From the IMG/VR virus record IMGVR_UViG_3300050581_000202: DNA of 64,000 nt, one strand, 5' to 3'. This document shows, piece by piece, positions 6,643 through 25,672 of this stretch; the first letter of the stretch is position 1, and every line of letters starts with the position of its first letter. The translations under genes were made by a program, and so were the position numbers. The stretch comes from a virus (taxonomy: Duplodnaviria; Heunggongvirae; Uroviricota; Caudoviricetes). The notes beneath the pieces were generated by a model, which was given only the letters and a program-made list of their open reading frames with translations, made no database searches and was not told the DNA's origin.

Positions 6643-6789
6643 TCAGAACACTCCCTTCGCCTTGGCGACGATCGCCCCGATGAAGCAGATGCCGCAGACC
6701 GTGATAACGGCCACGACCGGCGGGCACGTCATGGTCACGACCACAGCACCGGCCAAGAGCGAAATCACGAGGGTCACGAGTCCGGCCAT
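6643..6789 (-). CDS. small membrane protein (48 aa)
   Basis: Not in the ORF track. Minus-strand ATG at 6787-6789 gives MAGLVTLVISLLAGAVVVTMTCPPVVAVITVCGICFIGAIVAKAKGVF*. It is strongly hydrophobic and fits exactly between the flanking genes. Confidence 0.3.
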   Translation of the reverse strand: MAGLVTLVISLLAGAVVVTMTCPPVVAVITVCGICFIGAIVAKAKGVF

Positions 6790-6790
6790 G

Positions 6791-7813: not shown

Positions 7814-7919
7814 GGTGCGAACCTCAGTGGTCGGATCACTCCCTCAGAAATTGGCGAACAGGGCTTGCAGAAAGACGCCTTGCCGCCGTACTGGCGATAG
7901 GTTGTCGTGGGCGTTGCGG

Positions 7920-9062
7920 TCACTCGGCGTCTCTCCGTCGCCAATACCGAGCCTCTTTGGGAACGCCGTCATCGGTCAGTTCGCGGTACTTGAACGTGAC
8001 CGTCTGGCCCTTCTTGAATTGCTTGCCTTCGACCCAATAAGGAGTGTCGATGCCGGGGTTGTTGATGGCCCAATCGCGGGCCATTGGGTCGGCGAATTCC
8101 CGCTCGGTGTCGGTCAGGCCCGCCAGTTCCAATCGCTTGCCTTGGTAGTCCACGATCAGGGCACCGATCCTTCCCAAGAGCCGGCTGCCTTTGGCAGTCT
8201 CACGTCCGCTGGTGAAGCCCGTGACGCGGGCCTCTGCGTCCTGGAACGGCTTGTACTTGAGAATGGACCTGTGGCGTTTCGGCGTCCAAATGGAGTCAGG
8301 ATTGCGAATGACCACGCCTTCGCCGCCCTGATCCAGGACTCGTCCCAGGTACGCTTCCACCTGGTCGCCGGCCGCATCGGGAACGTCGATCAGCTTCGTC
8401 TGCGGATGGAGGTAGCAGACCGAGGCGTCGGTGTTCTCCAAGGCCGTATTGAGGATGGCCAATTCCTTGCCGAAGGGCTGGCCGGGTTGCAGAAAGCGGA
8501 AGTCGTCGCCAAGGCAGCGCTTCGGATGGGGCACGCCCTCGAATCGCTCGCCTCGGGAGTTGAGCCGCTGTCTGATCCACGCCTCGATGGTGAAGTAATC
8601 GACGTTGCAGACCATATTGGCGTTCTTGATCTGCCCGGTGCCAAAGACGCATCCGAGTGGCGGGCTGGAATAGACGGCGAAGACGATCTTGTCGAAGCGG
8701 TCGTCGGGTGTGTCGCCGCCGCAGATCGACCGGCAGAGTTGGAACTTGCCCCGTCCCGCCCACAATTCGCCATCCAAGGGACAGCAGGGAAGCTGATTGA
8801 GCCACCAGTCCGGGGCCATGATAGGATTGCCGTAGCGGCTCCACAGCCCGGTCGCTACGGGCTTGATCTTCGCCTTCTTCTGACCCGTCTTGGGGTCGAT
8901 GATCGAGGCCCAGGGCACCTCCTCGGTGGGCAGGCCACGGGTCACGCCGCCGTCCCAGAAACAGCGGGTGCCATCCAGCTTTTCCGACACAAACCAGCCC
9001 GCCACGTTATGCTTGCGCGGGTCGTAATGATCGGCCAGTTGCAGAAATTCGCGTCGCGCCAT
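7920..9062 (-). CDS. ATP-dependent DNA ligase
   Basis: Start MARREFLQLADHY at the ATG 9060-9062. The KxDG adenylation motif is present (SEKLDGTRC), along with GEGVVIRNP and ILKYK. The upstream 46 codons of the ORF are Arg/Gly-rich junk. Confidence 0.8.
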   Translation of the reverse strand: MARREFLQLADHYDPRKHNVAGWFVSEKLDGTRCFWDGGVTRGLPTEEVPWASIIDPKTGQKKAKIKPVATGLWSRYGNPIMAPDWWLNQLPCCPLDGELWAGRGKFQLCRSICGGDTPDDRFDKIVFAVYSSPPLGCVFGTGQIKNANMVCNVDYFTIEAWIRQRLNSRGERFEGVPHPKRCLGDDFRFLQPGQPFGKELAILNTALENTDASVCYLHPQTKLIDVPDAAGDQVEAYLGRVLDQGGEGVVIRNPDSIWTPKRHRSILKYKPFQDAEARVTGFTSGRETAKGSRLLGRIGALIVDYQGKRLELAGLTDTEREFADPMARDWAINNPGIDTPYWVEGKQFKKGQTVTFKYRELTDDGVPKEARYWRRRDAE

Positions 9063-9229
9063 CAGTAACACCTGTCCGAAAGCAGGGATCGGAGGAGCAG
9101 TTCCACGTCGGCAGTCCGCCGCGTGCGGACCCGTCGCTCGACTGCCACGGGCCGGCTGTAGACCGTCAGGCCGGGCCACCACGCGGCCCGCTCCACCCAA
9201 TCAGCCGGAATGAAGTCAACGGCGTGCAT
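9063..9229 (-). CDS. small hypothetical protein (55 aa)
   Basis: Not in the ORF track. MHAVDFIPADWVERAAWWPGLTVYSRPVAVERRVRTRRTADVELLLRSLLSDRCY*. Its stop overlaps the ligase ATG as TGATG, and a GAGGTG RBS lies 9 nt upstream. Confidence 0.3.
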
Positions 9230-9253
9230 GTACGTGTCACCTCACAAGCTGCG

Positions 9254-9862
9254 TTAGTCTCTCCGCTGGGAGATCGTAAATCCGGGTGACTTCTGGAGTG
9301 CCGCCGCGAGTTTTTCCTCCAGATACAAGCGGGGGTCTAAAGCCCAAAGGTCATTCCAGGGCCTTGGGACGGTGATGGCGTGGCCACCGTTGGCCTCGAA
9401 CCGCTCGATGTTTTCGCCGTAGTCGTCGATCAGCAGGGAGTCGGGACGAGCGAAAAGGTGCTTCCGGGGCGTGATGGCGTACTGCCGGTGCATCCACTCG
9501 GGAAAGTGGTCGTGAATCCACTCCAGCTTTCCCGCCAGGCAGTCGGGGTCTTTCGTCGGCGAGGTGGCGATGCAGACGTTCTCGCGGCCAACGGCTTGCG
9601 CGCAGGCGTCCAAGAGCCAAGGGAAGAAGTCGGACTCCGGCACCTTGATCCAGACGGAGCGCGGGATCGACGCCCAGAGCGTGGCCGGGGTGTAGCGCGG
9701 CCCACCCAACATGGCGTTGGCGGCGTCCGAGATATTGAAGCCATGCGCACGCGGATAGCGCGCATAGTCGCTCGGGCCGATGTTGCCGCCGACCGAGTGC
9801 AGCACGAACGGTGCCAGCGTATTGCACACGTCGTCCAAGTCCAGGAAGATGCGCCGGATCAT
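9254..9862 (-). CDS. HAD-superfamily 5'(3')-deoxyribonucleotidase-like protein
   Basis: N-terminal IFLDLDDVCN (HAD DxDxV motif, as in NT5C-type deoxynucleotidases), about 200 aa long. Confidence 0.55.
   Translation of the reverse strand: MIRRIFLDLDDVCNTLAPFVLHSVGGNIGPSDYARYPRAHGFNISDAANAMLGGPRYTPATLWASIPRSVWIKVPESDFFPWLLDACAQAVGRENVCIATSPTKDPDCLAGKLEWIHDHFPEWMHRQYAITPRKHLFARPDSLLIDDYGENIERFEANGGHAITVPRPWNDLWALDPRLYLEEKLAAALQKSPGFTISQRRD
9258..9300 (-). repeat. conserved ~42-bp element, copy 2
   Basis: TCTCTCCGCTGGGAGATCG-N13-CTTCTGGAGTG. Overlaps the last 14 codons of the nucleotidase gene and lies ~29 nt upstream of the small ORF start at 9229. Confidence 0.8.
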
Positions 9863-10542
9863 TCGTTGCGCAGGGCCTCCAGCTTGCGCTGCACGCGGGC
9901 GTCAATTTGCTTGGACATCCGTTGCACGGCCATGCGGGATTTGCCAATGGCGGTCCCAATCTCAACGAGCGTGTGGCCCGCTTCCCGCATGGCAACAAGC
10001 GTCCGCTCGTCTTCACCGGCGCAACACGAGTCGATCAGATCGCGGATTTCCAGTTCCTCTTGGTAGGAGGGAACCTCGAACCGCTCGGGGATGGCGTTGC
10101 AGACCTCGGGTGCTTCAAGCTCTTGACCATTCGCACGGGCGCGATACTTGGAACGAGCAGGCAGCCGGATGGTGTGTTCTGCGTCAACCAATTCTCCAAG
10201 TTCACGATTGATCCACATGCCAATGAAATCAGTTGGCGCAACGGGATCAGTGTTGCGCGGCCCCTCGCCGCGGGCCATCTTGTTGACCGCTTTGACCAGG
10301 CCGACGCATCCGGCGCTGACCAAATCATCGCGGAGATGTGCAATACTTGGGAACGAGCGGATGAAGGCTTCCACCTTCGAGAGGACCAACGGCATGTTGC
10401 CGCTAATCATGGTCTCTCGGGCCTTCTTGTCGCCGGCCGCAACGCGCGGGTGCAAGTCGGCGTTCTTCTCAGCCGTCCATGTCTCGCTGTTGGTCGCACG
10501 GTGCAGACCGGCAACTAGCTTTTCGTTGTACTGGTTACTCAC
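9859..10542 (-). CDS. sigma-70 family (ECF-like) RNA polymerase sigma factor
   Basis: Region 2 is DLHPRVAAGDKKARETMISGNMPLVLSKV...LVSAGCVGLVKAVNKM; the region 4 HTH is LVEIGTAIGKSRMAVQRMSKQ. The likely GTG start at 10540-10542 overlaps the upstream stop. The Ala/Thr/Pro-rich N-terminal 54 codons of the ORF were rejected. Confidence 0.7.
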   Translation of the reverse strand: MSNQYNEKLVAGLHRATNSETWTAEKNADLHPRVAAGDKKARETMISGNMPLVLSKVEAFIRSFPSIAHLRDDLVSAGCVGLVKAVNKMARGEGPRNTDPVAPTDFIGMWINRELGELVDAEHTIRLPARSKYRARANGQELEAPEVCNAIPERFEVPSYQEELEIRDLIDSCCAGEDERTLVAMREAGHTLVEIGTAIGKSRMAVQRMSKQIDARVQRKLEALRNE

Positions 10543-11032
10543 GGGTGCGCTCTCCAACGGGGTCAATCCGCCAGGCACAGCGGGTGTAGAACTGGTGGGC
10601 CTCGCAGGCGAGGCGGGAGTAGTCGTAGACCGACCCCTTGGGGTCGCAGATGCGCCCGTGGTCGTAGGCGACAACATGGCCGAAGCGCGCGCCGCGGCCG
10701 TCAATCACGCCACGACTCGCCCGGATCGTCTCCTCGAACCGCCGCCAGTTGTTGTTCGCATAGAGCACCGTCTTGTGCGGCCCACCTTCCGTGGGTTGCA
10801 GGACGGGGAACAGTTCCACCGGCGTGACGGCGAACCCGCGGGCCAGGGCGACTTGGATTGGCTCTTGGATGTGGAAGCACCGCCGGCGCAGCGGCTCGGA
10901 CAGACTGGGGAAGACGATCTCGCTGCCGTCGTGGCCAATGGCCGCGAGCAGATCGGCGACGGGCATATCCAAGGCCATTGCGAAGGCCAGAGGCATACAC
11001 ATCCACGGCTCGGGACGTTGTTGTAGTTCCAT
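10535..11032 (-). CDS. hypothetical protein (possible papain-like Cys/His peptidase)
   Basis: 165 aa with protein-like composition. Has an N-terminal Cys (WMCMPLAFAM) and a C-terminal His (FGHVVAYDHG). Confidence 0.3.
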   Translation of the reverse strand: MELQQRPEPWMCMPLAFAMALDMPVADLLAAIGHDGSEIVFPSLSEPLRRRCFHIQEPIQVALARGFAVTPVELFPVLQPTEGGPHKTVLYANNNWRRFEETIRASRGVIDGRGARFGHVVAYDHGRICDPKGSVYDYSRLACEAHQFYTRCAWRIDPVGERTRE

Positions 11033-11089
11033 AGGCGCAGGGTTTCTCCGCAGTTGGCGGTTCTTAGCGGGTTGAAGAGAGACGACGGG

Positions 11090-11488
11090 CTACCAGCCTT
11101 CGCGGTCTAGCTCGTCCAGCAGGGCGTCGATGTCAGGAACCTGACCCCAGGACGCCTTCCAGTAGTTGCGCCAGTTGGGCGGCGCGAACAGTTTGTCGTA
11201 TTCTTCTTGTGTCGCGGCCGTGAGTATCCAGATGCCGATGCCGAAGGCTTCCCATACGGGCCATTTCAGCTTTTGGGCCTTGGTGAAGCTGTAGTTGTTT
11301 CCCGGCCGCTTCACGTCGATCCATCGCTGGCCCCATTTGGGATGCGCGACGAACAGGTCGGGTATGCCCATCTGGAAGGCGTTGCCGATCATCCGCTCGA
11401 CGTGCCAGTCTCGAATCTTGAGGTAGGCCATCAGCGCTTGCTGGATGTGCCACTCTTGGCTGTGCTTTGGCCGGCGGATGTCACCCAC
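11090..11488 (-). CDS. VRR-NUC domain nuclease
   Basis: GIPDLFVAHPKWGQRWIDVKRPG...FTKAQKLK matches the VRR-NUC pattern. The likely GTG start at 11486-11488 overlaps the polA TAG (TAGTG); an alternative ATG is at 11429-11431. The ORF N-terminus is junk. Confidence 0.55.
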   Translation of the reverse strand: MGDIRRPKHSQEWHIQQALMAYLKIRDWHVERMIGNAFQMGIPDLFVAHPKWGQRWIDVKRPGNNYSFTKAQKLKWPVWEAFGIGIWILTAATQEEYDKLFAPPNWRNYWKASWGQVPDIDALLDELDREGW

Positions 11489-13989
11489 TACTTCATCATC
11501 TCCGGCGCTCTGATCTTGACCTGCGTGGCTCCCGACTTCTTCTCCGCCCAGTTGTTCATCCCCTCGCACCAGTCCATGCCGATCAGCGGCACGTAGGGAC
11601 GGAAATGCTCGACGGAATCCCGGACCACCTCCGTGACACTCGAAACCGTGTCCGGCCGGGTGACGCACATGATCTCGTCGTGGATATTCATGGGGGCGAC
11701 GTGCCAGTCATGGACGCCCACCGGCTGCAAGTCCCAAATCTTGCGCTGGACGTGCTTCGTGATTTCAGCGCCGGGCGATTGGATTTCGTGGTTTGCCGCT
11801 GCCCGCATGTTGGCCGCCTGCATCGAGAACGCCGCGCCGTAGAGGGCCGAGGAGACGGCACCGCCGGCCGTCTGCACGCGGTCGCGGCGGACGACCTTGA
11901 CTTTGCAGTCCTTCCAGTGCTTTGGTGTGTTGCGGGCCAAGTCGAAGATCGCGCGGGCGATGCGGTTCTCCAACGTGAAGTAGCGGCGGAATCCCAGCAT
12001 GGTCTCGGCGTAGTCGGCAGGGTCTTTCCAGACCACCTTCGTGCCGATGCCAGCCGGCTGGGTCATGGAGCAGAACGAATCGGCGACCCGCTTGCGCCAT
12101 CGCTTGACGCCCACGAACCGGCTACCAAAGTTCTCGATGGCCGCTTTGGCGACTTCTTCGCTAATGCCCAAACGGTTGACCAGCGTGCTATGGTCGCCGC
12201 CGTAGAGCATTGTGCCGAAGAAGCCCTGCTTGCCCTTCGTGTACATATCGTTGGTCGTGCTGCCGTCGCTCGACTTGACCTCTTCGTAAGTCGTGCCGGG
12301 GAAGATCGCCATGCCGAACAGGGCGTGAATCTTCCGGCCAGCAATCAACTCGGCGCGTAGTGCCTCGTCGTTGCACACGGCGTCGGCGATTGTCACCTCG
12401 AAGGAACTGAAGTCGCCGCCGCAGAGCAGATACCCGTTCCAGGCCAAGGGGAACGTCTGCCGGACTTCCTTGGTGTGCTTGATGCCCTGGGCATTCAGGC
12501 CATCCGCTCCGGCCATGCGGGACGAGAGGGCACCAATCACGACAAACGAGGCATGGAACTTGCCGGCCAAGAGCAACTTGTCGTATAGCTCGATTTCCTT
12601 GGCGGCGAACTTGACGCCGAGGATCTCCTTGGCACGGACGCCGGCCGGATGCCGGCCCACCTTCAGGCAGCCCGTGCCGCCGCAGCGTGCGCAATGCGCG
12701 TCGTCGCCCTGACACTTGCCGCACGGCTCTGACTCGCCGACGTAGCAGGCACCCTTGCACTCGGGGCAGGTGTCCGTTTCCTCGTGCAGATGGCCCTTGC
12801 CCTTGCACCTCGGGCACAACTGGCCGACCCCCCATTTGCTGATCGCTTCGAGGTTGGCCTTCTTCGTGGAGGTGTCGAGAATCAAGTGCTCGGTGCCATC
12901 CATCGCGGCCGTGATGTAGGCCCGGACCTCGCCCGGCTTGTTGATGTTCACCGGGCTGGCAGCCACCGTGGCTTCGGCCTTCGCCTTTAGGGCCTCGATC
13001 CCTTCGCGGTCGATCGTGAAGCCGTGCCAGCGGACGGCCGCCACCATGCAGGTCAGGGTCGAGTCGTTGTCCCCCGGCTCGGGGCAGCCGAAGTGCTTGT
13101 CCAGCGCCCGCGTATAAACGATGTCGTCGGTGGCGTACTCGCGGGCGTCCTGGCGGGTCGCCCAATGGTCAATGAACTGCCGAATCACGCCAGGCCAGGC
13201 ATACTTCGTGACTCTCTTGCCGGTGCCGCCCTCTTCGTCAGTTTCAATCGCCCAGCCCTTTTCGAGAGTGGACACGGCCAGGGCTGTGGGCGCATAGCCC
13301 AACTCGTAGGGTCGCCAGGCCGGGGGCGGCTCCACGTCCTTGTAGTGATACTTGGGCTTGAGCTTCAGGGCGTGCTCGGCGAGAAATTTGAGGCCGCCAG
13401 CCGGATTGAACTTCAAGACGACATCCTTGAACTCCGTGTCCAGATCGCCGAATGAATCGTGGCGGTCGAAGACCTGCCACTTGGGAGCTTCCGGGTCGGC
13501 CGAGCGGGCGAAGTAGATGTTGTCAAACTGGACGCGGGCCTCCAACTCGCGGGCCAGGGCATAGGCCAGCGCCGTGGGCACTCGCTTGATCCTGACATCC
13601 TCACGGGCCATGAGCGACTGGTAGGGGCCTTTGCGGCTGTGGAGCATCAGGTCCAGGACCGCTGCCGGCTTGATGCACGGGCCATCCTGTCCCTGGGGCT
13701 CCAGCATGGCGATCTCGTCGATGTGCTCTTGGGGTATCCAGTCCGGGTCACAGAGGCGGAAGGTCGTGTAGATTTTGCAGACGTGGAACCAGTCGAAGGA
13801 CAGGTTGAAGCCCACGACCGTGTGCTGGCATATCCACTCGATCAGCGCCAGCGTTTCGCGGATCGGCCTCCGCCAGACCTCGTACAGGACAACAGGGCCG
13901 TCTTCCACGGCGTACTGCAACAGCACCATCATGCTGTGCAACCCGCAGGTCTCCGTATCGAGGTAGAGTTTCGGCGGATGCTCGCTCAT
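11488..13989 (-). CDS. family A DNA polymerase (PolI-like, with 3'-5' exonuclease domain)
   Basis: LYLDTETCGL (Exo I), KGKQGFFGTMLYGG (motif B region) and NIHDEIMCV (motif C). A Cys-rich insertion is present: CPRCKGKGHLHEETDTCPECKG...CGKCQGDDAHCARCGGTGC. Confidence 0.9.
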   Translation of the reverse strand: MSEHPPKLYLDTETCGLHSMMVLLQYAVEDGPVVLYEVWRRPIRETLALIEWICQHTVVGFNLSFDWFHVCKIYTTFRLCDPDWIPQEHIDEIAMLEPQGQDGPCIKPAAVLDLMLHSRKGPYQSLMAREDVRIKRVPTALAYALARELEARVQFDNIYFARSADPEAPKWQVFDRHDSFGDLDTEFKDVVLKFNPAGGLKFLAEHALKLKPKYHYKDVEPPPAWRPYELGYAPTALAVSTLEKGWAIETDEEGGTGKRVTKYAWPGVIRQFIDHWATRQDAREYATDDIVYTRALDKHFGCPEPGDNDSTLTCMVAAVRWHGFTIDREGIEALKAKAEATVAASPVNINKPGEVRAYITAAMDGTEHLILDTSTKKANLEAISKWGVGQLCPRCKGKGHLHEETDTCPECKGACYVGESEPCGKCQGDDAHCARCGGTGCLKVGRHPAGVRAKEILGVKFAAKEIELYDKLLLAGKFHASFVVIGALSSRMAGADGLNAQGIKHTKEVRQTFPLAWNGYLLCGGDFSSFEVTIADAVCNDEALRAELIAGRKIHALFGMAIFPGTTYEEVKSSDGSTTNDMYTKGKQGFFGTMLYGGDHSTLVNRLGISEEVAKAAIENFGSRFVGVKRWRKRVADSFCSMTQPAGIGTKVVWKDPADYAETMLGFRRYFTLENRIARAIFDLARNTPKHWKDCKVKVVRRDRVQTAGGAVSSALYGAAFSMQAANMRAAANHEIQSPGAEITKHVQRKIWDLQPVGVHDWHVAPMNIHDEIMCVTRPDTVSSVTEVVRDSVEHFRPYVPLIGMDWCEGMNNWAEKKSGATQVKIRAPEMMK

Positions 13990-14356: not shown

Positions 14357-15181
14357 TCACTCCGCTGGGAGATCGGGAAGTCTCGCGCTTTCTGGAGTCG
14401 CCGCCTCAATTTCTTTCAGCAATGTCTCGTCAGAGACCTGACCGGCGCACCACGCGGCCACACGGGGCGGCAGGCCGCTGATGCCAACGGCCAACATCCG
14501 TTCGATCATGCGGTTGATTTCTTCGCGCGGCCGGACACTGCGGCGGCGTTTATACGTTCTGGCAAGACCCGGCAGGAACTTCCCCTTGCCGCGCTGCCGC
14601 GCCTCGGCGATCTTGTCGGCAGCGGCGATCTGCTCGTCGGCCGACTCGATTCCTGCCAGCGTGTCCAGGTTCCACTGCGAAAGCAGACCAGCAGCGGCCT
14701 TCTGTTGAATGGCCTCGGGCATCCGCAACAGCCGCACGCGGACCCAGACCCATCGCGTGTCCCGCTTTAGCTCGCGGGCCGCCTCCCGCACGCTCGCCCC
14801 GTGGGGATAGAGGTTCTGGATCGCACGGGCCTCTTCCAGGATGTTCAGGCTCTTGCGTTGCAGGTTCTCGACCAGATTCAGCATCCGGGCTTCATGGTCG
14901 CTCAAGCCCTCGCAGACGTAGGAGGGAATCTCCGTCCATTTCAGGAACTCGGTCACGGCCCGGAAGCGGCGGTGCCCGACGATCAGGCGGTACTGGCAGC
15001 CGGGTTCCTCCGTCCAAGGCTGGATGGCGACCGGGCAGATCAGCCGCCCTGCCTGGGCGATGCTCTCGGCCAGTTCTCTGACGGATTGCAGTGTGAACTC
15101 GCCACGACAGTTGAAGGTGGCGTCACAGTAAATGGTCGCCGCCGGGACGGGATATGCCTGGTACTGTTCCAGCGGTTTCAT
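14357..15181 (-). CDS. ParB/sulfiredoxin-like nuclease domain protein
   Basis: Start MKPLEQYQAY (ATG 15179-15181, ATGA overlap with the upstream gene). Contains the ParB N-domain motif RLIVGHRRFRAV. Confidence 0.6.
   Translation of the reverse strand: MKPLEQYQAYPVPAATIYCDATFNCRGEFTLQSVRELAESIAQAGRLICPVAIQPWTEEPGCQYRLIVGHRRFRAVTEFLKWTEIPSYVCEGLSDHEARMLNLVENLQRKSLNILEEARAIQNLYPHGASVREAARELKRDTRWVWVRVRLLRMPEAIQQKAAAGLLSQWNLDTLAGIESADEQIAAADKIAEARQRGKGKFLPGLARTYKRRRSVRPREEINRMIERMLAVGISGLPPRVAAWCAGQVSDETLLKEIEAATPESARLPDLPAE
14358..14399 (-). repeat. conserved ~42-bp element, copy 3
   Basis: CACTCCGCTGGGAGATCG-N13-TTTCTGGAGTC. Overlaps the ParB-like C-terminus and lies 9 nt upstream of the start at 14349. 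Confidence 0.8.
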
Positions 15182-15978
15182 CGCAAGGCACGGGAAAAAA
15201 GCGCAGGCCGGTTGCTGGGCAGCCATTCCCAGACGGCTGCGCTGCCGTCGTCGTTGATCCGCACGAAAGTATCGTTCGTCCTTGCCCAAGTCCCAGTGTT
15301 GAAGTGGTAGTCGCCGATCGAGCCCGGCTCGTGCGTGTGACCGTAGACCACCACGTCCGCCCCAGCCTCCTTGCGATACGCTTCTACGCCATCAAGCATT
15401 TCATCCATGCGGCCGTGCTGAAGGGTCAACTTCCGCCAGAGGGTCAAGGCCCCTTCCAACGTGCCGACGAACTGATCTTCCACGGCACGATGATTCGTCG
15501 AAAACGGCCCCCGATTGCGGTCTTCCAACAGGCCGGAAATGATCGCGGTGATCTCGCCGGTGCCGGGGTTGGCGTCGCGGCAATACGGGTCGGACTCGTG
15601 CCCGTGGAGGAAGGCAAACCGCCGACCGCCGATGGTCGCCTCGAAGGCCCTGGACATGGCGGGCAACGTAAGCCCCTGCAATTTGATCTGGGTGCCGATG
15701 AAGTCGATCAAGGCGTTGTCGTGGTTGCCGACTACCCACAAGGCCCCGAGCGGACCCATGTGTGCCATACGTGCCAGCAGGTCTTGATAGGCGCGAATCG
15801 ACCGGCTCAGGTTGACTTGCCACCAATCGAACAGATCGCCCAGGATATAGAGGAGGCCGCCTTCGGTCTCCACGTAATCCAGGAACTTGTGGAAGCGGAC
15901 CTCGCGGCCCTCCGCCGCGAAGTTATCGCGGTAGCCCCGGTCGCACAGATGCAAGTCGCTCACGCAGAAGATGGACAT
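15178..15978 (-). CDS. calcineurin-like metallophosphoesterase
   Basis: CVSDLHL, ILGDLFDWW, GNHD, LHGHE and GHTHEP motifs. Confidence 0.7.
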   Translation of the reverse strand: MSIFCVSDLHLCDRGYRDNFAAEGREVRFHKFLDYVETEGGLLYILGDLFDWWQVNLSRSIRAYQDLLARMAHMGPLGALWVVGNHDNALIDFIGTQIKLQGLTLPAMSRAFEATIGGRRFAFLHGHESDPYCRDANPGTGEITAIISGLLEDRNRGPFSTNHRAVEDQFVGTLEGALTLWRKLTLQHGRMDEMLDGVEAYRKEAGADVVVYGHTHEPGSIGDYHFNTGTWARTNDTFVRINDDGSAAVWEWLPSNRPALFSRALR

Positions 15979-16017
15979 GGGCTTTCTCCAGAATTGAGAC
16001 TGTAGCGGCCGAGGTCG

Positions 16018-16203
16018 TCACGCATGGCCTTCTCCCGCATAGCGGTGCCACAATCGGTTCAAGGTCTCTTCGATTCCATAGAGCGAGTAGACAAGCGTGT
16101 GTGGCTCGCCGAAGGCGAACAGCAGACGGTAGACGCATTGCGGATCGTCGCGCATCCCGACGTACCGATTGCGATGCACCAGGACACGTTCCTGTCCATC
16201 CAC
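16018..16203 (-). CDS. hypothetical small protein (possible gene remnant)
   Basis: 61-aa ORF next to an integrase remnant. No family recognised. Confidence 0.2.
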   Translation of the reverse strand: MDGQERVLVHRNRYVGMRDDPQCVYRLLFAFGEPHTLVYSLYGIEETLNRLWHRYAGEGHA

Positions 16204-16212
16204 CGGACCTCC

Positions 16213-16295
16213 TTATGTGGCGCAGCCAGTTATGTGGCGTCCAACACGAATCGTCCGGGATTCCAGGGGTCGTTGCTGTGCTGGACGCCACATAA
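16213..16295. repeat. direct plus inverted repeats (TTATGTGGCG x2; TTATGTGGCGTCC / GGACGCCACATAA) next to the integrase remnant
   Basis: TTATGTGGCG occurs at 16213-16222 and 16230-16239. A 13-bp perfect inverted copy GGACGCCACATAA lies at 16283-16295. Confidence 0.6.
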
Positions 16296-16303
16296 TGTCG
16301 GTT

Positions 16304-16524
16304 CTACAGGCTTCGCAGAAACTCCATGATTCCTCGATTCTTGCGCCAAGGCTTCTTCGGCTTGCCGCCCTTGATTTCGCACTTCACAAGTGCCTTGGCC
16401 TTCATTTTCAGATCGACTTCTGCATACACGTTGGTCGTGCTGAGGCATACATGACCCAGCCACGCTCGAATCGTGTTGATGTCCACGCTGGCTCGAAGCA
16501 GGTGGGTCGCCGCGCCTCGCAGGT
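16304..16524 (-). pseudogene. tyrosine recombinase (phage integrase) C-terminal remnant
   Basis: The frame translates ...THLLRASVDINTIRAWLGHVCLSTTNVYAEVDLKMKAKALVKCEI..., which is the canonical integrase C-terminus containing the catalytic Tyr (NVYAEV). An in-frame stop lies immediately upstream at 16525-16527. Only ~70 aa of the ~350 expected are present. Confidence 0.65.
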
Positions 16525-16698
16525 CTACAAGTCGGCAGGCTTCCCAGTGCGGCGCGCAATGGCGAGCGCCTGCTTGATGGCCTTCTTCTTGGCGGCCTCA
16601 CGGCTCGCTGCATCGCCAGCCGTGTAGATGTACTTGGCACCCGTAGTGCCATACTGAATCGCCGGCTTCCCGTTCTTCGTTGCGCGATGGATCGGCAT
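16525..16698 (-). CDS. small conserved hypothetical protein (57 aa)
   Basis: Not in the ORF track. MPIHRATKNGKPAIQYGTTGAKYIYTAGDAASREAAKKKAIKQALAIARRTGKPADL*; ATG at 16696-16698. Confidence 0.35.
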   Translation of the reverse strand: MPIHRATKNGKPAIQYGTTGAKYIYTAGDAASREAAKKKAIKQALAIARRTGKPADL

Positions 16699-16711
16699 GA
16701 TCTACTCCGGG

Positions 16712-18028
16712 TCAGGTCTTCAGCGGCCCCACGTCGCGGCCACCGTCGATCAGGTAGCGCCTGGGGCCGTTCTTCTCGTTCTCGTGGCGCAGCTTGCAAT
16801 TCATCCGCCAGGTGATGCCGTGCTTCGGATTGACGCCGTGAAGCCACTGGGACGGCTCGCGGTAGCCGGACAAGGAGTTGTAGGCGAAGGCGTCGGTGCC
16901 CACCCACGACCCGTTGACCAGCAGTTCGCCGTCCACGTCGGACAGGACGCTGGCGGCATGATGATGGCCGACGCAGAAATAGCGGCAGCGCTGGGCACCG
17001 GCCGCCGCACCCAGGGCGATCAGGCCCTTCTGCCGGCGGACCATGCCGTACCACGGGATGCCCAGGTTGGAGCGAACGTCGTCGCCGTGGGCGATGTTGA
17101 AGCCGACGCCGTTGATGTTGACGTTGGCGCTCCACGCATCGGGAATCGTGAAGTGGACGTTCTCCACGCCACGACAATGCAGACGCGCGACCTCACCGAC
17201 CAGATAATCCCAGTTGTCGTGCGCGCCGAGGTAGTCCTTCTTGGGTGTCCGCCGGCCGTGGTTGCCGGCCAGGTACAAGACATGGACCTCCTCGAAGTGG
17301 GCGGCCAGGTCGCGGTACATCAGGGCGTGCAACTGGCCGATGGCGAGGCAGTTCTTGAACTGGTTGCGGTAGTAGCTGCGCTCGCACGCCTTGTGGATTT
17401 CGCCGCTGGTGAAGTCGCCGTAGGCCAAGACCCACAGCACCGGGAAGTAGAACTTGGGTGCGAGGGTGTCCTGGGTCCATTCCACGACCGTGTTGACGTA
17501 CCGCTCGGCGCGACAACACGAGACGGGGAAGTTGTAGTCTTCCAGCCCGCCTACCTGATCGGGAACCACGACCTGATCGTGGTGGCCGTCCGACAGGTGC
17601 ATGACGCAGTGCTCGACGATCTGCGCCTTGCGTCGGTACTCGAAGGCCGTCGGCAGCGGCTCAAACGGCTTGATGCGTTGTTCCATTTCCGCAACGACGG
17701 CCTTGAACAAGCCGGCGATCTTCGCCCCGGCCTTGACCTTCTGCCGTTCGCGGTTTCGTTCATCGGTCAAATGGACGATCTCGGCCTCCAACTCCAAGAC
17801 CCGTTTGTCGGTCGGGTCGTAGTCCGGGAGAGTCTTGTGCTGGCCGCCGGCCCGCTTGGGCGTCGGCGGTTCCCCGCTCGGCCACTGCACGTCTTTGTGG
17901 ACCCGGCCCGTGGCGATGTCGGACACGATGGAGCGACTGACCTTGAATTGCCTGGCAATATCCGGCTGCGTGACGCCATCCGTGATGGCCTGCTTGATCT
18001 TCTCAACCTTCTTCTTGGTCAGCTTCAT
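16712..18028 (-). CDS. HTH domain fused to a PPP-type Ser/Thr-phosphatase-like metallophosphoesterase
   Basis: The N-terminal HTH is KIKQAITDGVTQPDIARQFKVSRSIVSDIATGRV. Phosphoesterase motifs follow: LSDGHHDQ, AYGDFTSGEIH, YLAGNHG, IAHGDD and VGHHH. Confidence 0.6.
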   Translation of the reverse strand: MKLTKKKVEKIKQAITDGVTQPDIARQFKVSRSIVSDIATGRVHKDVQWPSGEPPTPKRAGGQHKTLPDYDPTDKRVLELEAEIVHLTDERNRERQKVKAGAKIAGLFKAVVAEMEQRIKPFEPLPTAFEYRRKAQIVEHCVMHLSDGHHDQVVVPDQVGGLEDYNFPVSCCRAERYVNTVVEWTQDTLAPKFYFPVLWVLAYGDFTSGEIHKACERSYYRNQFKNCLAIGQLHALMYRDLAAHFEEVHVLYLAGNHGRRTPKKDYLGAHDNWDYLVGEVARLHCRGVENVHFTIPDAWSANVNINGVGFNIAHGDDVRSNLGIPWYGMVRRQKGLIALGAAAGAQRCRYFCVGHHHAASVLSDVDGELLVNGSWVGTDAFAYNSLSGYREPSQWLHGVNPKHGITWRMNCKLRHENEKNGPRRYLIDGGRDVGPLKT

Positions 18029-19855: not shown

Positions 19856-21888
19856 GATGCGACCTCCTCCACCGACATCTCGCCTTCTTCACCGGCATCC
19901 TTCCAATCGACGCCTTGGAGGAATTCACCCATCGTCATTAGCTCCAACTTCCGGTTGGCGCGGATCACGTCGAGCACGCGGCTGTCACTCGGCAGATGGA
20001 TCAGGTCCACGATGGTGCATCCCAGGTTCTCGTCCATGCCCTTGCGGTGGATGCGGTCTTCGCTTTGCACCCGGTATTCCGGCTTCCAACTGTTGGACCA
20101 GTACACCGCCATGCGGGCCTCCACCAACGTCAGGCTCATGCCGCCTGACTCCGGGTTGGCCACAAAAGCAACCTTGCCGTGGCCTTCCAAGTTGGCCCAG
20201 TAGTCCAGTGGCTCTTCTTCCGTTGCCAACGCGCCGTCCGGGCCGTCGCTCTTGGCGCGAAACACCTGGAAGTTCCCCTGGTCGCAGCGCACCACGTCCC
20301 ACTTTTCCTTGAGGCACAGCCTGACGATGCGATCCACCGAGCCGGTGAAGCCGGCGAAGATCACCAACCGCCCGACTTCCTCGTTCTCGTCCAACAGCAT
20401 CTTCAGGGCGGCGTCCTTCGGACACGGGACTTCCCGCGCAACACGGACCATCCGCGGTACTTCCCGCTTGCCGCCGCATGCCGGGCAAGGAACGGTCTGC
20501 TTGACCAACCGGGCCTTCAACTCGGGGTCCAGCAAGTCGATGGCCTGGTAAGTGGCCTCGGGATCGTCCGGGTCCACCCATTCGGCGACGGTGCCGTCCG
20601 CGCAATGCGTGCATTTCGTCACGCCGTCTTGCTGTTCGCGGTACTGGAAGCCGTCGCTCAGTTCCCGCAGCAGGGTCATGCCCGTCACGGCGTTGGGTGC
20701 CGCGCCGAAAAGGGCCTCGGCCACGCGCAACGTGCTGGCGGACGGCTTGCAAACGACCTTCCGGTATCGTTTTTCCGGCAGTTGCAGGCAGTCCTTCTTG
20801 TGCTTGATGACGACCAGCCCTTTGAGCCGGTCGTAGAGGTAGGCAACCTCGTTGGTGCTGGCGACGAACTTGTGGTAGCTGTCCGGGTCCGTTACGCCGT
20901 CCAATTCGTGCGGTCCCTCCTCGAACGTCTCTCCACACTGGGCGCATTTCCTCTGGTCGTCCTTCCAGCCGATGCGCTTCTTGAACTTGCCGGCATCGAA
21001 CTGCTGCTCAACCATGAAGGCCAAGCGTTCTTCCATCGCGCGGCGGCTGCCCTCTTTCAGGAAGCCCGGCCAGGCAATCTCGCACTGGCTCCACCAGTCG
21101 CACGGCGTCTTCGGCGACGGCGTGCCCGACATCTCGATCACGTAGCCCTCGTGGCCAAACGTCGTGCGGATCAGGTCCGCGAGCTTCTGGCAGGCTTTGG
21201 AGCGCTGCGAGGTGTCGTTCTTGCACCGGCTCGATTCATCCGCCACGAAGAACCGCGGCAAGGTCTGCGAGCCGTCCCACTCGTCCATAACGCGGACCAG
21301 ACCTTCATAGGTGAAGAACTCCACCTGGATGCGGTCGAAGGGAAAACCCCACAGCTTGAACTCACGCTTGATGTTCGGAATGCTGGTCTTCGGCCCCGCC
21401 CACCACACCAGATCGACGCCCGACTTCTCAATCACCATCTGGGCGGCCAGGGTCTTGCCCGTGCCCATCTCGGCACCGAATATCTGGTAGTGATACGTCA
21501 GGCCGGCGTCGGCCATGTCTGCCTGATGCGGCATGAAGTTCTGCGGCACGCCGCCGCGCATCAGCGGGCGGTACTCGTGACGCACAAGCGGGCGGTCGAA
21601 CCAGGCGTAGACATCCTCGCCGCAGAGATAGCCGATTTGGAAACGATTGCGCTGGCAGTCGTCCACGGACCACACTTTGATCTTGGCGTACTCGCCCTCG
21701 TCGTCGTAGCCGTGGAAGTGCGCGCCGCGCATGGCCTTGACTTCCGCCATCAGCCCGTAGCGAGTCTTCGTGCCGACCTTGCCGTCCCAGAAATAGATGC
21801 GGCCATCCTTTCTTTCCAACAGCACGGGCACACGAATCCTCGTGCCGCTGGATGTCTGGGCTTCAACCTTCACGGACTCAAGCGACAT
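19852..21888 (-). CDS. SNF2-family DEAD/DEAH-box helicase with zinc-ribbon insertions
   Basis: GAEMGTGKT (Walker A), FFVADESSRC (DExx) and a C-terminal helicase domain (LTLVEARMAVYWSNSWKPEYRVQSEDRIHRKGM). Inserted Cys pairs: CAQCG, CTHCADG and CPACGG. Confidence 0.85.
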   Translation of the reverse strand: MSLESVKVEAQTSSGTRIRVPVLLERKDGRIYFWDGKVGTKTRYGLMAEVKAMRGAHFHGYDDEGEYAKIKVWSVDDCQRNRFQIGYLCGEDVYAWFDRPLVRHEYRPLMRGGVPQNFMPHQADMADAGLTYHYQIFGAEMGTGKTLAAQMVIEKSGVDLVWWAGPKTSIPNIKREFKLWGFPFDRIQVEFFTYEGLVRVMDEWDGSQTLPRFFVADESSRCKNDTSQRSKACQKLADLIRTTFGHEGYVIEMSGTPSPKTPCDWWSQCEIAWPGFLKEGSRRAMEERLAFMVEQQFDAGKFKKRIGWKDDQRKCAQCGETFEEGPHELDGVTDPDSYHKFVASTNEVAYLYDRLKGLVVIKHKKDCLQLPEKRYRKVVCKPSASTLRVAEALFGAAPNAVTGMTLLRELSDGFQYREQQDGVTKCTHCADGTVAEWVDPDDPEATYQAIDLLDPELKARLVKQTVPCPACGGKREVPRMVRVAREVPCPKDAALKMLLDENEEVGRLVIFAGFTGSVDRIVRLCLKEKWDVVRCDQGNFQVFRAKSDGPDGALATEEEPLDYWANLEGHGKVAFVANPESGGMSLTLVEARMAVYWSNSWKPEYRVQSEDRIHRKGMDENLGCTIVDLIHLPSDSRVLDVIRANRKLELMTMGEFLQGVDWKDAGEEGEMSVEEVAS

Positions 21889-23101
21889 GCAATCTCCCTC
21901 GGGCGATCTCGCAATTGTGTTCGGTCAACTCGACGCCGATGCAGCGGCGGCCCAGGCGCTTGGCGGCCAAAAGCGTGGTGCCGCTGCCAGCGAAGGGGTC
22001 CAGAATCACGCCGCCATCCGGGGTCGAGAGCAGGGTCAGCAGGTACTCCATGAGGCCCAGTGGCTTAACGGTCGGATGGTCGTTGCCCGGCCCGCGCTCC
22101 GTGCGCGTCGCTTTGGCACAGTAGAAAAACCGGCTCGCTCCGCCCGAGTCGCCATAGCTCACCTGCACGTCGCCCGCCCTGCCGATGCCACCGTGATAGC
22201 CGTCGCCCGACTTGGTGCGGACGCAGTTGGTGCCACTGGTTAGCGTGCCGGTCTGTGCATCGAGTTGGACTGCCACCTCGTCGTCAAGCAACAGATTCGC
22301 CGGCCAACGTCCGCACTCCGATCCGCCTACAGGTGAGCGATTCGTGCTGGCCCAGCCGGCATCCGTTAGGCTGTCGCCGCGCTTGCGCACCGTGCTTTCG
22401 GTGCCGATCCGGCAAGCGTCGATGTTCATGCCGGCCACACCCCAGGTCAGGGCATTGTGGGCAATCGTGCCATCCAGCGGTTTCATCGCCAGGACGATTG
22501 GCTCCCAGGCCGGCTTGAGGGCCATTGCCCAGCCGGTCCACCGCGCGGCCTCGGGAGTGGCGGGAGCCGTTATCTGCGCGGCGCGAAGCCGAGCGTCGGT
22601 GCCAGGGGCATGAAGGCCGTTGCCACCGCCGTAGCATCCGTTCCCCTTGCCCTCGTGCAGGTGGTAGCCGGGACGGTCGAGCTTGTCGCCAATGACCTGT
22701 CGCTCCGCACCTTTCGATTTGTCAATCAGTTTGCCGATGTCGCCACACTTGGGCATCCCCTGGCCGTAAAGCCACATCAGCGCATCCCGAATCTCCCAGC
22801 CGGCATCCTCGATGGCGCAGCACAGCCGGTGATAGGTCCGCGTGCCGCCGAACGCCAGCAAGAGAGCACCGGGCTTGGACACGCGGGCGATGGCCCGCCA
22901 ATACTCGGGGCCAGGAACCTCGTGGTCCCAGTCCTTCTCCATGAAGCTGAGCCCGTAGGGCGGGTCCGTCGCCACGAAGTCTACCGATGCCTCGGGCAGC
23001 GTAGGCAGCACGTCGAGGCAGTTGCCGCAGTACAGGCTCAGGTTGTTCTGCTCGAAGAAGGGCTGCATGATAGGCGCTGACTCGAAAGCAATGACAGTCA
23101 C
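21878..23101 (-). CDS. DNA methyltransferase (N6A/N4C, DPPY + FxGxG)
   Basis: FVATDPPYG (motif IV) and DPFAGSGTT (motif I). The ORF start is GTG at 23099-23101, inside conserved element copy 4. An alternative ATG (MQPFFEQNN) is at 23066-23068. Confidence 0.85.
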   Translation of the reverse strand: MTVIAFESAPIMQPFFEQNNLSLYCGNCLDVLPTLPEASVDFVATDPPYGLSFMEKDWDHEVPGPEYWRAIARVSKPGALLLAFGGTRTYHRLCCAIEDAGWEIRDALMWLYGQGMPKCGDIGKLIDKSKGAERQVIGDKLDRPGYHLHEGKGNGCYGGGNGLHAPGTDARLRAAQITAPATPEAARWTGWAMALKPAWEPIVLAMKPLDGTIAHNALTWGVAGMNIDACRIGTESTVRKRGDSLTDAGWASTNRSPVGGSECGRWPANLLLDDEVAVQLDAQTGTLTSGTNCVRTKSGDGYHGGIGRAGDVQVSYGDSGGASRFFYCAKATRTERGPGNDHPTVKPLGLMEYLLTLLSTPDGGVILDPFAGSGTTLLAAKRLGRRCIGVELTEHNCEIARGRLHVA

Positions 23102-23839: not shown

Positions 23840-24652
23840 CTACCGGGCACGGGCCGGCTTGCTGTCCTGGACCTTCTCGACGCCGTTGTCCTTGACAGTA
23901 AGGAACTTGACAATCTCCCGGCGGATCACATCGTCGGCGGGCAGCCGGGTGAATGGCGTGGAGCACATCACCACCACGGGAACGTGCCAGGTGCCTTTGC
24001 GGTTCTCGGCCACCTTGACCTTCAAGGTGACGGGGATCGGGCCGTGCGGCTTCAGATCGCCGACCGCGTTGCCGGCCACCGCCTTGGCGTCGATGTCCGT
24101 CTGGGTGAGCGGAAGGAAAGGAAAGAGTTTCTTCGCCTCGATGCGGCTCGACTTGTTGCCGCAGAAGAACTCCAGGAACCGGCCGGTGCTCCGCTCGTAG
24201 ACGAGAAAGCTGGGACCGTACTGGCAGTGCGAATCGGCTTCGGTGGACTTGGCGGCGATCCGCTTGAACTCCTCGGATTCCATGTCGTAGGAGATGACCA
24301 GGGCCTCCATGTCGGTCATGTCGATGGCCTTCGGCCGGCGGGCCAGCGGGAGCAGGTCCGCGGACGGCCCCAGGTCGATGATCTCTTCATCGGACTCCGG
24401 GATGCCATAGTGGCCCTGCGGAATGAGGCCCTTCATGTTGGCCTTCGACTTCGTGTAGAGTTGCATCCGGCCGATGTAGTCGCCGCCCTTGGCGAGTTCC
24501 GCGAACTGGTCGTCGGTGCCGATCTGGGTGGAGGGAAGCTGGTCGAGATTGATGGGAACCAAAGCGGTGTCGGACATGGTTGTTCTTTCAGGGTTCAGGG
24601 TTCGGGATTCAGAGTTCAGGCGTCGAGAAGGTAGGTCACTCGTTGTCGTCAC
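23840..24652 (-). CDS. hypothetical protein
   Basis: 270 aa. A GGAGGG RBS precedes the ATG at 24650-24652; an alternative ATG is at 24575-24577 (MSDTALVPINLD). Function unknown. Confidence 0.4.
   Translation of the reverse strand: MTTTSDLPSRRLNSESRTLNPERTTMSDTALVPINLDQLPSTQIGTDDQFAELAKGGDYIGRMQLYTKSKANMKGLIPQGHYGIPESDEEIIDLGPSADLLPLARRPKAIDMTDMEALVISYDMESEEFKRIAAKSTEADSHCQYGPSFLVYERSTGRFLEFFCGNKSSRIEAKKLFPFLPLTQTDIDAKAVAGNAVGDLKPHGPIPVTLKVKVAENRKGTWHVPVVVMCSTPFTRLPADDVIRREIVKFLTVKDNGVEKVQDSKPARAR
24578..24626. repeat. short direct repeats (GTTCAGGG-like, 4 copies) immediately downstream of the ParB-like gene
   Basis: GGGTTCAGGGTTCGGGATTCAGAGTTCAGG. Confidence 0.4.
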
Positions 24653-25565: not shown

Positions 25566-25587
25566 CGGTGCATCCGCGTCATACGTT

Positions 25588-25672
25588 GACACCTATACAA
25601 GACTGCCAAAGTCCCGTTTTTTCCCAACATTTCTGGGAAACTGCGAGCTTTTGGCAGTCTTGTATAGGTGTC
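25588..25672. promoter_or_regulatory. 24-bp near-perfect inverted repeat with a nested palindrome, in the divergent ParB-like / primase-helicase intergenic region
   Basis: GACACCTATACAAGACTGCCAAAG (25588-25611) and CTTTTGGCAGTCTTGTATAGGTGTC (25648-25672) are reverse complements with a single T indel. The 36-nt spacer contains TTCCCAACATTTCTGGGAA (TTCCCA-N7-TGGGAA). Confidence 0.7.

Follow-up and report, generated by a model that had tools for sequence, protein, structure and literature searches.

Does the truncated tyrosine recombinase gene that lies beside a cluster of repeats, between the metallophosphoesterase and HTH-phosphatase genes of this uncultured phage, mark the place of a lost lysogeny module? 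The first-pass annotation of the 64,000-nucleotide stretch analysed here (the window) had proposed a truncated integrase/attP scar, and took this as a hint of a prophage, defective or domesticated, or of a phage that had lost lysogeny. The truncated recombinase, the repeats and the joint of that proposal are all present, but their attribution to a lysogeny module of the phage itself does not hold, as related phages have no integrase there. Positions 16213-16511 are very probably a stump, the right end of a RIT (recombinase-in-trio) transposon that was inserted in the phage and then mostly deleted.

The minus-strand frame at 16304-16546 ends in ...THLLRASVDINTIRAWLGHVCLSTTNVYAEVDLKMKAKALVKCEIKGGKPKKPWRKNRGIMEFLRSL* in translation, and its last 68 codons (16304-16511, with the stop at 16304-16306) correspond to residues 269-336 of RitC; an in-frame stop was found further upstream in the same frame, as had been noted before. 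The Pfam Phage_integrase profile matched the fragment over positions 132-169 of 172 with an E-value of 2.9e-6 and a score of 27.6 bits, narrowly over the gathering score. The best database homologues reached E=3e-35 and up to 94% identity, and 97% amino-acid identity was obtained with residues 269-336 of RitC from the related phage contig L031 (tblastn). The similarity to integrases is significant, and the breakpoint falls at RitC residue 269. The remnant retains the LGH and catalytic Tyr motifs, as first described. [quoted passage not shown] Arg-I, the HxxR box and the entire N-terminal 80% of RitC are missing, and the peptide encoded by the stump cannot be catalytic. Searches of the 64 kb with RitA, RitB and RitC (tblastn) found no other Rit-like sequence. 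Of the three adjacent same-strand genes ritA-ritB-ritC of an intact RIT, only RitC residues 269-336 are left, and the overlaps between the rit genes disappeared with the deleted genes. The GC content is 0.52-0.55 across 16275-16499 versus about 0.62 in the rest. Next to the remnant, and outside it, lies orf57 (16525-16698, minus strand), an intact conserved phage gene found in about 50 of the 80 related contigs with 60-88% amino-acid identity. With orf57 in place, there is no space for the 268 recombinase codons that are missing.

The origin of the fragment became apparent from a comparison with these 80 related phage contigs. Recombinase genes between the HTH-phosphatase and metallophosphoesterase genes occur only in L031, and about 79 of the 80 contigs lack them. 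L031 carries a complete RIT of about 3.4 kb at exactly the site of the remnant, with three same-strand tyrosine recombinase genes encoding 416, 312 and 336 amino acids (ritA, ritB and ritC); ritA and ritB overlap by 4 bp (9117-9120), and ritB and ritC by 8 bp if ritC starts at the ATG at 10048. The ends of the element are inverted and built from TTATGTGGCG motifs as in the window, and an exact 27-mer inverted repeat is located at both ends in opposite orientation, 3.35 kb apart. Window positions 16213-16511 (299 bp) could be aligned with L031 10851-11149 at 98.0% nucleotide identity, whereas the phage flanks of the two are merely 86-91% identical, and both have an identical right junction. The close relatives L007, L008, L010, L079 and L054 have an empty site at the very nucleotide at which L031 is filled; their homology to the window stops exactly at 16512 and resumes at 16212. 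All close relatives other than L031 have orf66 where the window has the 299 bp, and 16512 and 16212 are the exact breakpoints. The phage family thus contains one intact RIT, one stump at the same site and another RIT at a different site. Intact recombinases do exist in a related phage, as the first-pass annotation had suggested looking for, but they belong to a three-gene RIT and not to a phage-type integrase. Apart from the copies in L031, the 27-mer is absent from other IMG/VR contigs, and the stump is known from one genome. Among GenBank phages, we obtained no DNA similarity match and no protein with more than 42% identity to RitC.

The joint between the metallophosphoesterase and HTH-phosphatase genes, previously noticed as a recombination joint, can be mapped as a deletion joint at 16511/16512, where phage DNA (the 3' end of orf57 and a spacer) reaches to 16512 and ritC follows with codon 269 from 16511 downward. 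In the alignment, the window follows L007 up to ...GAGGCGC and ritC thereafter from GGCGACCCACC. Relative to L031, the window lacks L031 7518-10850 (3333 bp). The joint shows 1 nt of microhomology together with a GACC(C)AC.TGC similarity nearby. Because no arm motif of the RIT ends was present in the alignment at either breakpoint, the deletion looks illegitimate, and we rejected a Rit-mediated site-specific origin. The stump could also have been acquired by recombination with an L031-like phage instead of by insertion and subsequent deletion. An assembly error at a multi-copy element is formally still conceivable for the joint. Assemblers would rarely make a chimeric join on an overlap of just 1 nt.

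The other boundary of the stump falls within a conserved ORF. In the relatives, this gene encodes 72 amino acids with the conserved N-terminus MKYRALF(V/I)GGP, and the insertion point lies between codons 8 and 9. In the window the gene is 5'-truncated (16018-16203, minus strand), leaving 61 codons after an internal GTG, with an in-frame TAA directly upstream that comes from the RIT end; the 61 residues are 100% identical to those of L007. The 61-aa ORF that had been placed in the integration module does exist, but it belongs to the phage, lost its 5' end through the insertion and is no part of such a module. The target hexamer GGAGGT (16207-16212, minus strand) adjoins the outer arm of the RIT end and makes up codons 9-10 (Gly-Gly) of the disrupted gene. 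The empty site in L007 reads TTTTTGTC-GGAGGT-CCGGTGG, and in L031 GGTGG flanks the element on both sides, with its reverse complement within the left end. The flanking hexamers of other RIT copies match as well, being identical in 11 of 17. From this pattern, the hexamer is presumed to be the crossover or overlap region of the insertion.

Between the hexamer and the ritC fragment lies a complete RIT terminal unit of 83 nt, the right (ritC-side) end of the element (16213-16295, minus strand). Read on the minus strand, it consists of an inner arm TTATGTGGCG at 16286-16295, a middle arm CGCCACATAA at 16230-16239 and an outer arm CGCCACATAA at 16213-16222, the latter two separated by a 7-nt spacer. 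Even with one mismatch allowed, TTATGTGGCG occurs just three times in the 64 kb, at 16213 (plus), 16230 (plus) and 16286 (minus), and all three copies adjoin the recombinase fragment; their number is not unusual for the window (at least three in 48 of 100 shuffles), but their clustering is. The inner and middle arms with their extensions constitute an imperfect palindrome (16230-16295, minus strand) with 18-nt arms at 16278-16295 and 16230-16247 and a 30-nt loop. These arms are 94% complementary with one mismatch. The direct and inverted repeats of the first-pass annotation are confirmed, and the inverted repeat is longer than had been described. As single-stranded DNA, the palindrome has a dG of -22.3 kcal/mol (z = -3.97). 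No T-run follows it and it was scored as no terminator; since searches for an intrinsic terminator, a promoter and a known RNA at the palindrome all came up empty, these assignments were dropped.

The same unit recurs at other RIT ends in genomes and metagenomes, where we found 95 distinct versions, nearly always of 82-83 nt. It lies downstream of ritC in L031, L088, L089, L091-L093, L095 and L105, and in the window the ritC fragment is directly followed by this unit typical of intact RIT ends. An inverted end on the other side is absent from the window, which has the right end at 16213-16295 only. Because the same motifs stand unchanged at both ends of RIT copies from Planctomycetota and metagenomes, the repeats are, as judged by this conservation, motifs that belong to the termini of RIT elements. 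For the same reason they most likely are recombinase sites, as had been supposed, and we infer that the three TTATGTGGCG-type arms are putative binding sites of the Rit recombinases.

Full trios with the same TTATGTGGCG end architecture were found by a protein-based scan in Pirellulales, Thermoguttaceae and Planctomycetia MAGs, with RitC proteins of 82-88% amino-acid identity; the exact 27-mer inverted repeat is absent from 185,579 representative genomes, a search covering exact matches only. RitC is also 56-61% identical to the third gene product of trios on rhizobial, Paraburkholderia and Cupriavidus plasmids. The trio on the Paraburkholderia plasmid pBPHY02 (413, 309 and 331 aa, overlaps of 4 and 8 bp) has the same layout as in L031. 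For the three Rit proteins, XerC and XerD give the best NCBIfam matches, all under the cut-off.

On this evidence, a decayed integrase/attP module of the phage itself, and with it a defective prophage or lost lysogeny, is very unlikely. Such a module would account for a tyrosine recombinase C-terminus beside direct and inverted repeats, and for the failure to find an intact integrase in the window: the Pfam search of 20 mid-size ORFs revealed none (small, very divergent or serine recombinases in unscanned ORFs could escape it), and neither a phage integrase nor an attP was found. The window contains no tRNA genes. However, about 79 relatives are free of a phage integrase at this locus, the sole filled relative carries a RIT of three genes bounded by inverted ends of its own, the nearest kin of the fragment are RitC proteins of bacterial RIT trios, the repeats coincide with conserved RIT termini, and the insertion breaks a phage ORF. 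As the remnant is a RIT stump, nothing in it points to lost lysogeny or to a prophage that is defective or domesticated.

The database matches raised a different possibility. The best 120 protein matches to the fragment are all short, and some recombinase C-termini stand alone in bacterial chromosomes (L110, L001, L100 and L101). Phages 21 and e14 restore icd upon integration, and in a similar manner the fragment might be an attP equipped with a spare copy of the 3' end of a recombinase gene from the host, so that integration would restore the target gene. The idea was suggested by the short matches and by a VDLR upstream of THLLR in L001, seemingly shared with the window; VDLR is, however, the end of the phage orf57 and the resemblance is due to chance. 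The short matches proved to be contig-end truncations, frameshifted trios (L108 and L109), a mini-RIT of 1.4 kb in which RitA 1-234 is fused to RitC 169-336 (L002-L006), and solo tails; frameshifts or internal deletions thus explain many of them. The solo fragments break at differing residues (239, 269, 270, 273 and 280). Moreover, no integrase for such integration was found among the 20 mid-size ORFs of the window, no prophage junctions with this phage inside ritC at codon ~268 were found in Planctomycetota genomes, and the intact RIT at the same site in L031 accounts for the fragment directly. We consider this explanation extremely improbable.

The insertion of a RIT followed by its deletion would then have proceeded in two steps, in an order that we infer. 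In the first step, a complete RIT of about 3.4 kb (left end-ritA-ritB-ritC-right end), from the family resident in Planctomycetota, would have entered GG(A/T)GGT by tyrosine-recombinase site-specific recombination, between codons 8 and 9 of the 72-aa gene, which belongs to the variable region that separates the HTH-phosphatase gene from the metallophosphoesterase gene. In the second step, an illegitimate deletion of about 3.3 kb on 1-nt microhomology, from the start codon of orf66 to ritC codon 268, would have taken away orf66 and, of the RIT, its left end, ritA, ritB and the first 268 ritC codons, sparing the last 68 ritC codons and the complete 83-nt right terminal unit. The stump cannot move because it has one end only and no recombinase, and it is most likely an immobile fossil, recent and still undecayed.

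The intactness of the 83-nt end unit, which is essentially free of mutations, could alternatively mean that the stump was kept for a function in cis. The end unit and its hybrid core would then be recognised by Rit recombinases of host RITs, allowing recombination or integration of the phage at host RIT copies or re-capture of a RIT. The dif-like RIT cores and the abundance of RITs in the likely host phylum are compatible with such a role, and dif sites are used in trans by integrating elements such as the CTX phage. However, the 98% identity to the intact copy indicates a recent event, so the undecayed state needs no selection; the stump occurs in one genome only, L031 alone among other IMG/VR contigs has the 27-mer, and there is no evidence of integrated forms. 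A retained function in cis is very improbable.

What the locus reveals about RIT insertion is a separate matter. About 120 metagenomic RIT ends were considered for the insertion pattern. The outer arm with the hexamer resembles half of a dif-like core CGCCACATAA-N6-TTATGTGG, and the expected junction of a RIT circle would be outer arm-hexamer-TTATGTGG-N4-CCACATAA-hexamer'-outer arm. A second palindrome of 20 bp with an inverted hexamer, which resembles earlier target sites, occurs on the ritA or the ritC side of RITs. The 4-nt centre of the small end palindrome was predicted to be oriented according to the side of the element on which it lies; this failed, as both orientations occur irrespective of side. 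The simple circle model with two core sites leaves this pattern unexplained and is thus incomplete. RIT transposition has never been reproduced by experiment (PMC10214605), and the roles of arms and hexamer are therefore deductions from sequence patterns.

With these reservations, it is possible, though rather doubtful, that RITs actively invade and ride Planctomycetota phages and that their ends imply a junction with two mirror-image dif-like cores. We are equally tentative about the insertion pattern within that reading, a fixed three-arm unit of 82-83 nt per end and a 6-bp hexamer on both flanks. In a bolder variant, the complete end unit in the window might still be a usable docking site for host Rit recombinases. 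We found no description of such insertion chemistry for RITs in the literature, and RITs in phage genomes seem undescribed so far. The stump, a transposon scar, removes a false lead about a lost lysogeny module or domesticated prophage in the window. RIT elements are widespread and their mechanism is uncharacterised; this phage family supplies clean natural filled/empty pairs that reveal the mode of RIT insertion, a mapped insertion point in an ORF and a recent deletion derivative. The data suggest that phages can ferry RITs among Planctomycetota and indicate a planctomycete as the likely host of this uncultured phage group.

How does the stump compare with known systems? RIT elements have been described by Van Houdt et al. 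(2009, 2012; PMC3414803) and Ricker et al. (2013, Plasmid 70:226). L031 matches the published definition (PMC3414803) in the ritA-ritB-ritC order, gene sizes, overlaps and terminal inverted repeats, the last being 34 bp long in RITs (PMC10214605), and the window retains the C-terminus of RitC and one terminal repeat unit. In contrast, the window has a one-ended 299-bp stump in a phage genome, where the 2012 survey listed no phage members in RIT families (PMC3414803), and the host phylum is Planctomycetota and not the well-studied alpha- and beta-proteobacteria. Like IS remnants, solo LTR-like scars and other internal-deletion derivatives of transposons, the stump is what an illegitimate deletion left behind, a non-autonomous piece that retains one terminal repeat and part of a transposase-type gene; the mini-RIT of L002-L006 and the solo RitC tails in L110 and L001 are further decay products of this RIT family. 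It differs from IS remnants and solo LTR-like scars in that its enzyme is a tyrosine recombinase instead of a DDE transposase, and in that the deletion also removed a neighbouring phage gene.

Lambda-type integrase/attP modules and the stump have in common the catalytic domain of a tyrosine recombinase and a cluster of repeats, which most likely are recombinase sites. Unlike such modules, the stump has no arm-binding N-terminal domain family, Xis or tRNA, its exact 27-mer gave no match to a host attB in the representative genomes, it is absent in relatives, and its repeats are transposon termini. In the Xer system, dif reads GGTGCGCATAA-TGTATA-TTATGTTAAAT, and the RIT arms around the 6-bp hexamer, CGCCACATAA-N6-TTATGTGG, resemble it, a resemblance in sequence only. 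Tn554 and SEs have a 6-bp footprint (PMC10214605), of which the RIT hexamer that resembles earlier target sites is reminiscent. In contrast to Xer/dif, Tn554, SE and GInt, a RIT encodes three recombinases, and its ends have three arms each, with a small palindrome in addition.

On the minus strand, positions 16304-16546 give a stop-free translation ...WEACRLVDLRGAATHLLRASVDINTIRAWLGHVCLSTTNVYAEVDLKMKAKALVKCEIKGGKPKKPWRKNRGIMEFLRSL* with an in-frame stop further upstream, and this frame overlaps the end of a distinct 57-aa ORF (orf57, 16525-16698) in a different frame. The peptide matches positions 132-169 of 172 of the Pfam Phage_integrase domain, its last quarter (E=2.9e-6); LGH and the catalytic Tyr are retained, but Arg-I, the HxxR box, and the two DNA-binding lobes are absent. 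The GC content is 0.52-0.55 across the fragment, whereas it is ~0.62 elsewhere. The 64-kb window has three copies of TTATGTGGCG, all inside 16213-16295, and an 18-nt inverted repeat with one mismatch encloses a 30-nt loop. Translation, the Pfam match, motif counts, and the GC dip thus confirmed the truncated integrase C-terminus and the neighbouring repeats described in the first-pass annotation. Because these parts are missing, as is any convincing start or Shine-Dalgarno sequence for the peptide, the sequence makes a functional protein very unlikely.

With the adjacent 438-aa HTH-phosphoesterase gene as query, 80 related viral contigs were retrieved, and the presence of the local genes was recorded in each. 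Orf57 was found in about 50 of the 80, the conserved phage gene orf66 in at least 44, and the 61-aa ORF in about 30, and an integrase between the two phosphoesterase genes was absent in all of them except one related phage, L031. The closest relative, L007 (96-98% nucleotide identity across the neighbouring genes), lacks any recombinase sequence here: its gene order is orf57, a 66-aa ORF (orf66), and the 61-aa ORF gene. In L031, orf66 and the 61-aa ORF gene are separated by an insert of 3.6 kb that encodes three tyrosine recombinases in a row, at 7870-9120 (ritA, 416 aa), 9117-10055 (ritB, 312 aa), and 10048-11058 (ritC, 336 aa), with gene overlaps of 4 bp and 8 bp. Both ends of the insert bear the exact 27-mer TTATGTGGCGCAGCCAGTTATGTGGCG, in opposite orientation and 3.35 kb apart. 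Adjacent ritA, ritB, and ritC genes with overlaps of 4-8 bp define the recombinase-in-trio (RIT) transposons (PMC3414803), for which terminal inverted repeats of 34 bp have been reported (PMC10214605), and by its gene layout the L031 insert matches this definition. Among the relatives, the distance separating the HTH-phosphoesterase gene from the metallophosphoesterase gene (15979-16711 in the window; the corresponding stretch in L007-L086) varies from about 0.4 kb to >5 kb, and the small ORFs within it differ; this accessory region is hypervariable and tolerates both insertions and deletions.

In all close relatives, homology to the window is lost exactly at 16512 and regained at 16212, and they hold a 223-bp segment of orf66 where the window has 299 bp. 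These 299 bp (16213-16511) are 98.0% identical to L031 10851-11149, which comprises the last 68 ritC codons and the right terminal unit, whereas the phage flanks of the window and L031 are only 86-91% identical. The right junction is the same in both, with the outer arm CGCCACATAA abutting GG(A/T)GG. The feature is the remnant of a RIT right end, a known element type in an unusual phage context. The first-pass annotation was therefore right in part: its reading as a scar of the phage's own integrase and attP gave way in the comparison with related phages, which revealed the intact three-gene RIT of L031.

The empty site in L007 reads TTTTTGTC-GGAGGT-CCGGTGG, and the downstream gene there encodes 72 aa, (V/M)KYRALFVGGPVDGQ..., which places the RIT between codons 8 and 9. 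An in-frame TAA from the RIT end directly precedes GGPVDGQ in the window. The insertion and the TAA that it supplied therefore make the "61-aa ORF" a truncated phage gene, which at best restarts at an internal GTG. After the insertion, 3 nt separate the Gly-Gly codons GGAGGT (16207-16212) from a downstream in-frame GTG (16201-16203); as a putative Shine-Dalgarno sequence, GGAGGT could allow synthesis of the truncated 61-aa protein. At the left joint (16511/16512), the spacer that follows orf57 runs directly into ritC codon 269; the microhomology there is 1 nt, and close by the orf66 start and ritC show a GACC(C)AC.TGC similarity. A deletion of 3333 bp would have taken out orf66, the left end, ritA, ritB, and 268 ritC codons. 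Because the RIT arm motif is absent from both breakpoints, this deletion looks illegitimate rather than Rit-mediated. With a single end and no recombinase, the stump is presumably unable to transpose. It is at most a hypothetical residual cis docking site for the Rit recombinases of host-resident RITs; the 98% identity to the intact copy marks the stump as a recent event, and recency alone suffices to explain its undecayed state.

A protein search with the fragment returned 1046 matches, the best 120 of which all had lengths of 60-139 aa and identities of 70-94%. The idea of a distinct group of short proteins, or of an attP with a spare gene end, was rejected when these short matches proved to be a mixture of genes truncated at the ends of contigs, frameshifted trios (L108 and L109), a recurrent 1.4-kb internal-deletion derivative (L002-L006), and a few solo tails in chromosomes (L110 and L001). 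A motif upstream of THLLR common to L001 and the window was a chance likeness, the window sequence being the conserved 3' end of orf57. The 1.4-kb mini-RIT (e.g. L002 8983-10340) has both ends and a single chimeric, frameshifted gene in which RitA 1-234 is fused to RitC 169-336. It is identical across contigs of several samples and one NCBI MAG and looks like a non-autonomous deletion derivative. Solo RitC C-terminal tails lie in bacterial chromosomes at L110 4956-5252, L001 762-965, L100 5001-5171, and L101 5001-5183, beginning at residues 239-280 with no ritA or ritB nearby; the carriers include Cupriavidus necator and an Arenicellales MAG. Right-end stumps like that of the window therefore recur, perhaps through detection bias or because this path of decay is preferred.

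The window, a phage genome, encodes the terminase large subunit (59324-60997), a P22-type coat protein (53418-54866), PolA (11488-13989), DNA ligase, endonuclease VII, two DNA methylases (806-1558 and 21878-23101), an HNH protein (3766-5082), and, on the minus strand, two ParB-like proteins (ParB_N and HTH_ParB; 14357-15289 and 24636-25592). A scan of 20 mid-size ORFs and tblastn with the Rit proteins yielded no integrase, and the window has no tRNA genes. A defective prophage or lost lysogeny, also proposed initially, was not borne out, since the remnant is a RIT end and therefore carries no information on lysogeny.

In a scan of genomes, MAGs of Pirellulales, Thermoguttaceae, Planctomycetia, Ca. 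Kuenenia, and Ca. Anammoximicrobium proved to encode RitC with 82-88% identity, and the RitA-RitB-RitC trio is complete wherever the contig reaches far enough. The RIT family of the stump thus points to a Planctomycetota host for the phage. Downstream of ritC, every copy has TTATGTGGCG, about 46 nt, CGCCACATAA, N7, and CGCCACA(G/T)AA, and the mirror image precedes ritA. In all, 95 distinct end units were collected from genomes, viral contigs, and 120 loci in metagenomes (together L002, L031, L088-L095, L105-L109, and L111-L230), 80 of them 82-83 nt long; the units are built of three 10-bp arms with freely varying sequence between them; three arms per end and three recombinases is a suggestive match. 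In its motifs, window 16213-16295 corresponds to one complete end unit, and the repeats are evidently RIT termini. The 18-nt extended palindrome, a trait of the ritC-side unit in the planctomycete family, folds well as computed for ssDNA and has no T-tract, terminator score, promoter score, or Rfam match. Nielsen et al. described imperfect palindromes of 47-51 bp at RIT ends (PMC5737581).

Over the ends of about 119 RIT copies, the hexamer outside the outer arm usually agrees between the two flanks (identical in 11 of 17). One RIT end bears an extra 20-bp palindrome, TTATGTGG-N4-CCACATAA, adjoined by an inverted hexamer, which equals the flank hexamer in 41 of 118 cases. Non-matching inner hexamers resemble targets at other copies of the same sub-family (e.g. 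GAATTA, GAACTC, and GACCTC), as if the inner hexamer were a memory of earlier sites. The small palindrome lies on the ritA side in 29 and the ritC side in 37, and on both in some contigs, and its 4-nt centre occurs in both orientations irrespective of side. A joined-ends intermediate could present two mirror-image cores, either usable for insertion, but this model leaves the side-independent flip of the centre unexplained. One sub-family (metagenome contigs L129, L179, L188, and L189) sits within seemingly homologous coding motifs, ...ATC GA(A/C/G) (T/C)T(A/C) AAG A.. GG. AAG, or I-(E/D)-L-K-x-G-K, which suggests gene-specific targeting.

The same phage family holds a second, different RIT (L105 3729-9874, and L106; IMGVR_UViG_3300031524_001228 and IMGVR_UViG_3300050010_000747), with RitC 87% identical in amino acids to that of L031, at the equivalent of window ~53,126-53,165 near the coat-protein region. 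Two different insertion sites mean that RITs entered this family at least twice. Beyond the second RIT lie ~2.75 kb of additional DNA, which may be cargo, and a distal small palindrome, TTATGTGGTCCACCACATAA. In another contig, L107 (IMGVR_UViG_3300050026_000687), a RIT has the same phage sequence on both sides, inverted (1280-3317 and 6519-8554; 90.3% identity over 2 kb); the arrangement may stem from chimeric assembly of two strains in which the RIT occupies one site in opposite orientations, or the inverted duplication may be genuine. A 2012 survey listed no phage members among RIT families (PMC3414803), and no RitC homologue above 42% identity was found in GenBank phages. L031 RitC is 56-61% identical to the third gene of RIT trios on 594 plasmids of Rhizobia, Paraburkholderia, Cupriavidus, and others, and the pBPHY02 trio has the same gene sizes and overlaps as that of L031. 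The outer arm-hexamer-TTATGTGG arrangement of the RIT resembles a dif core.
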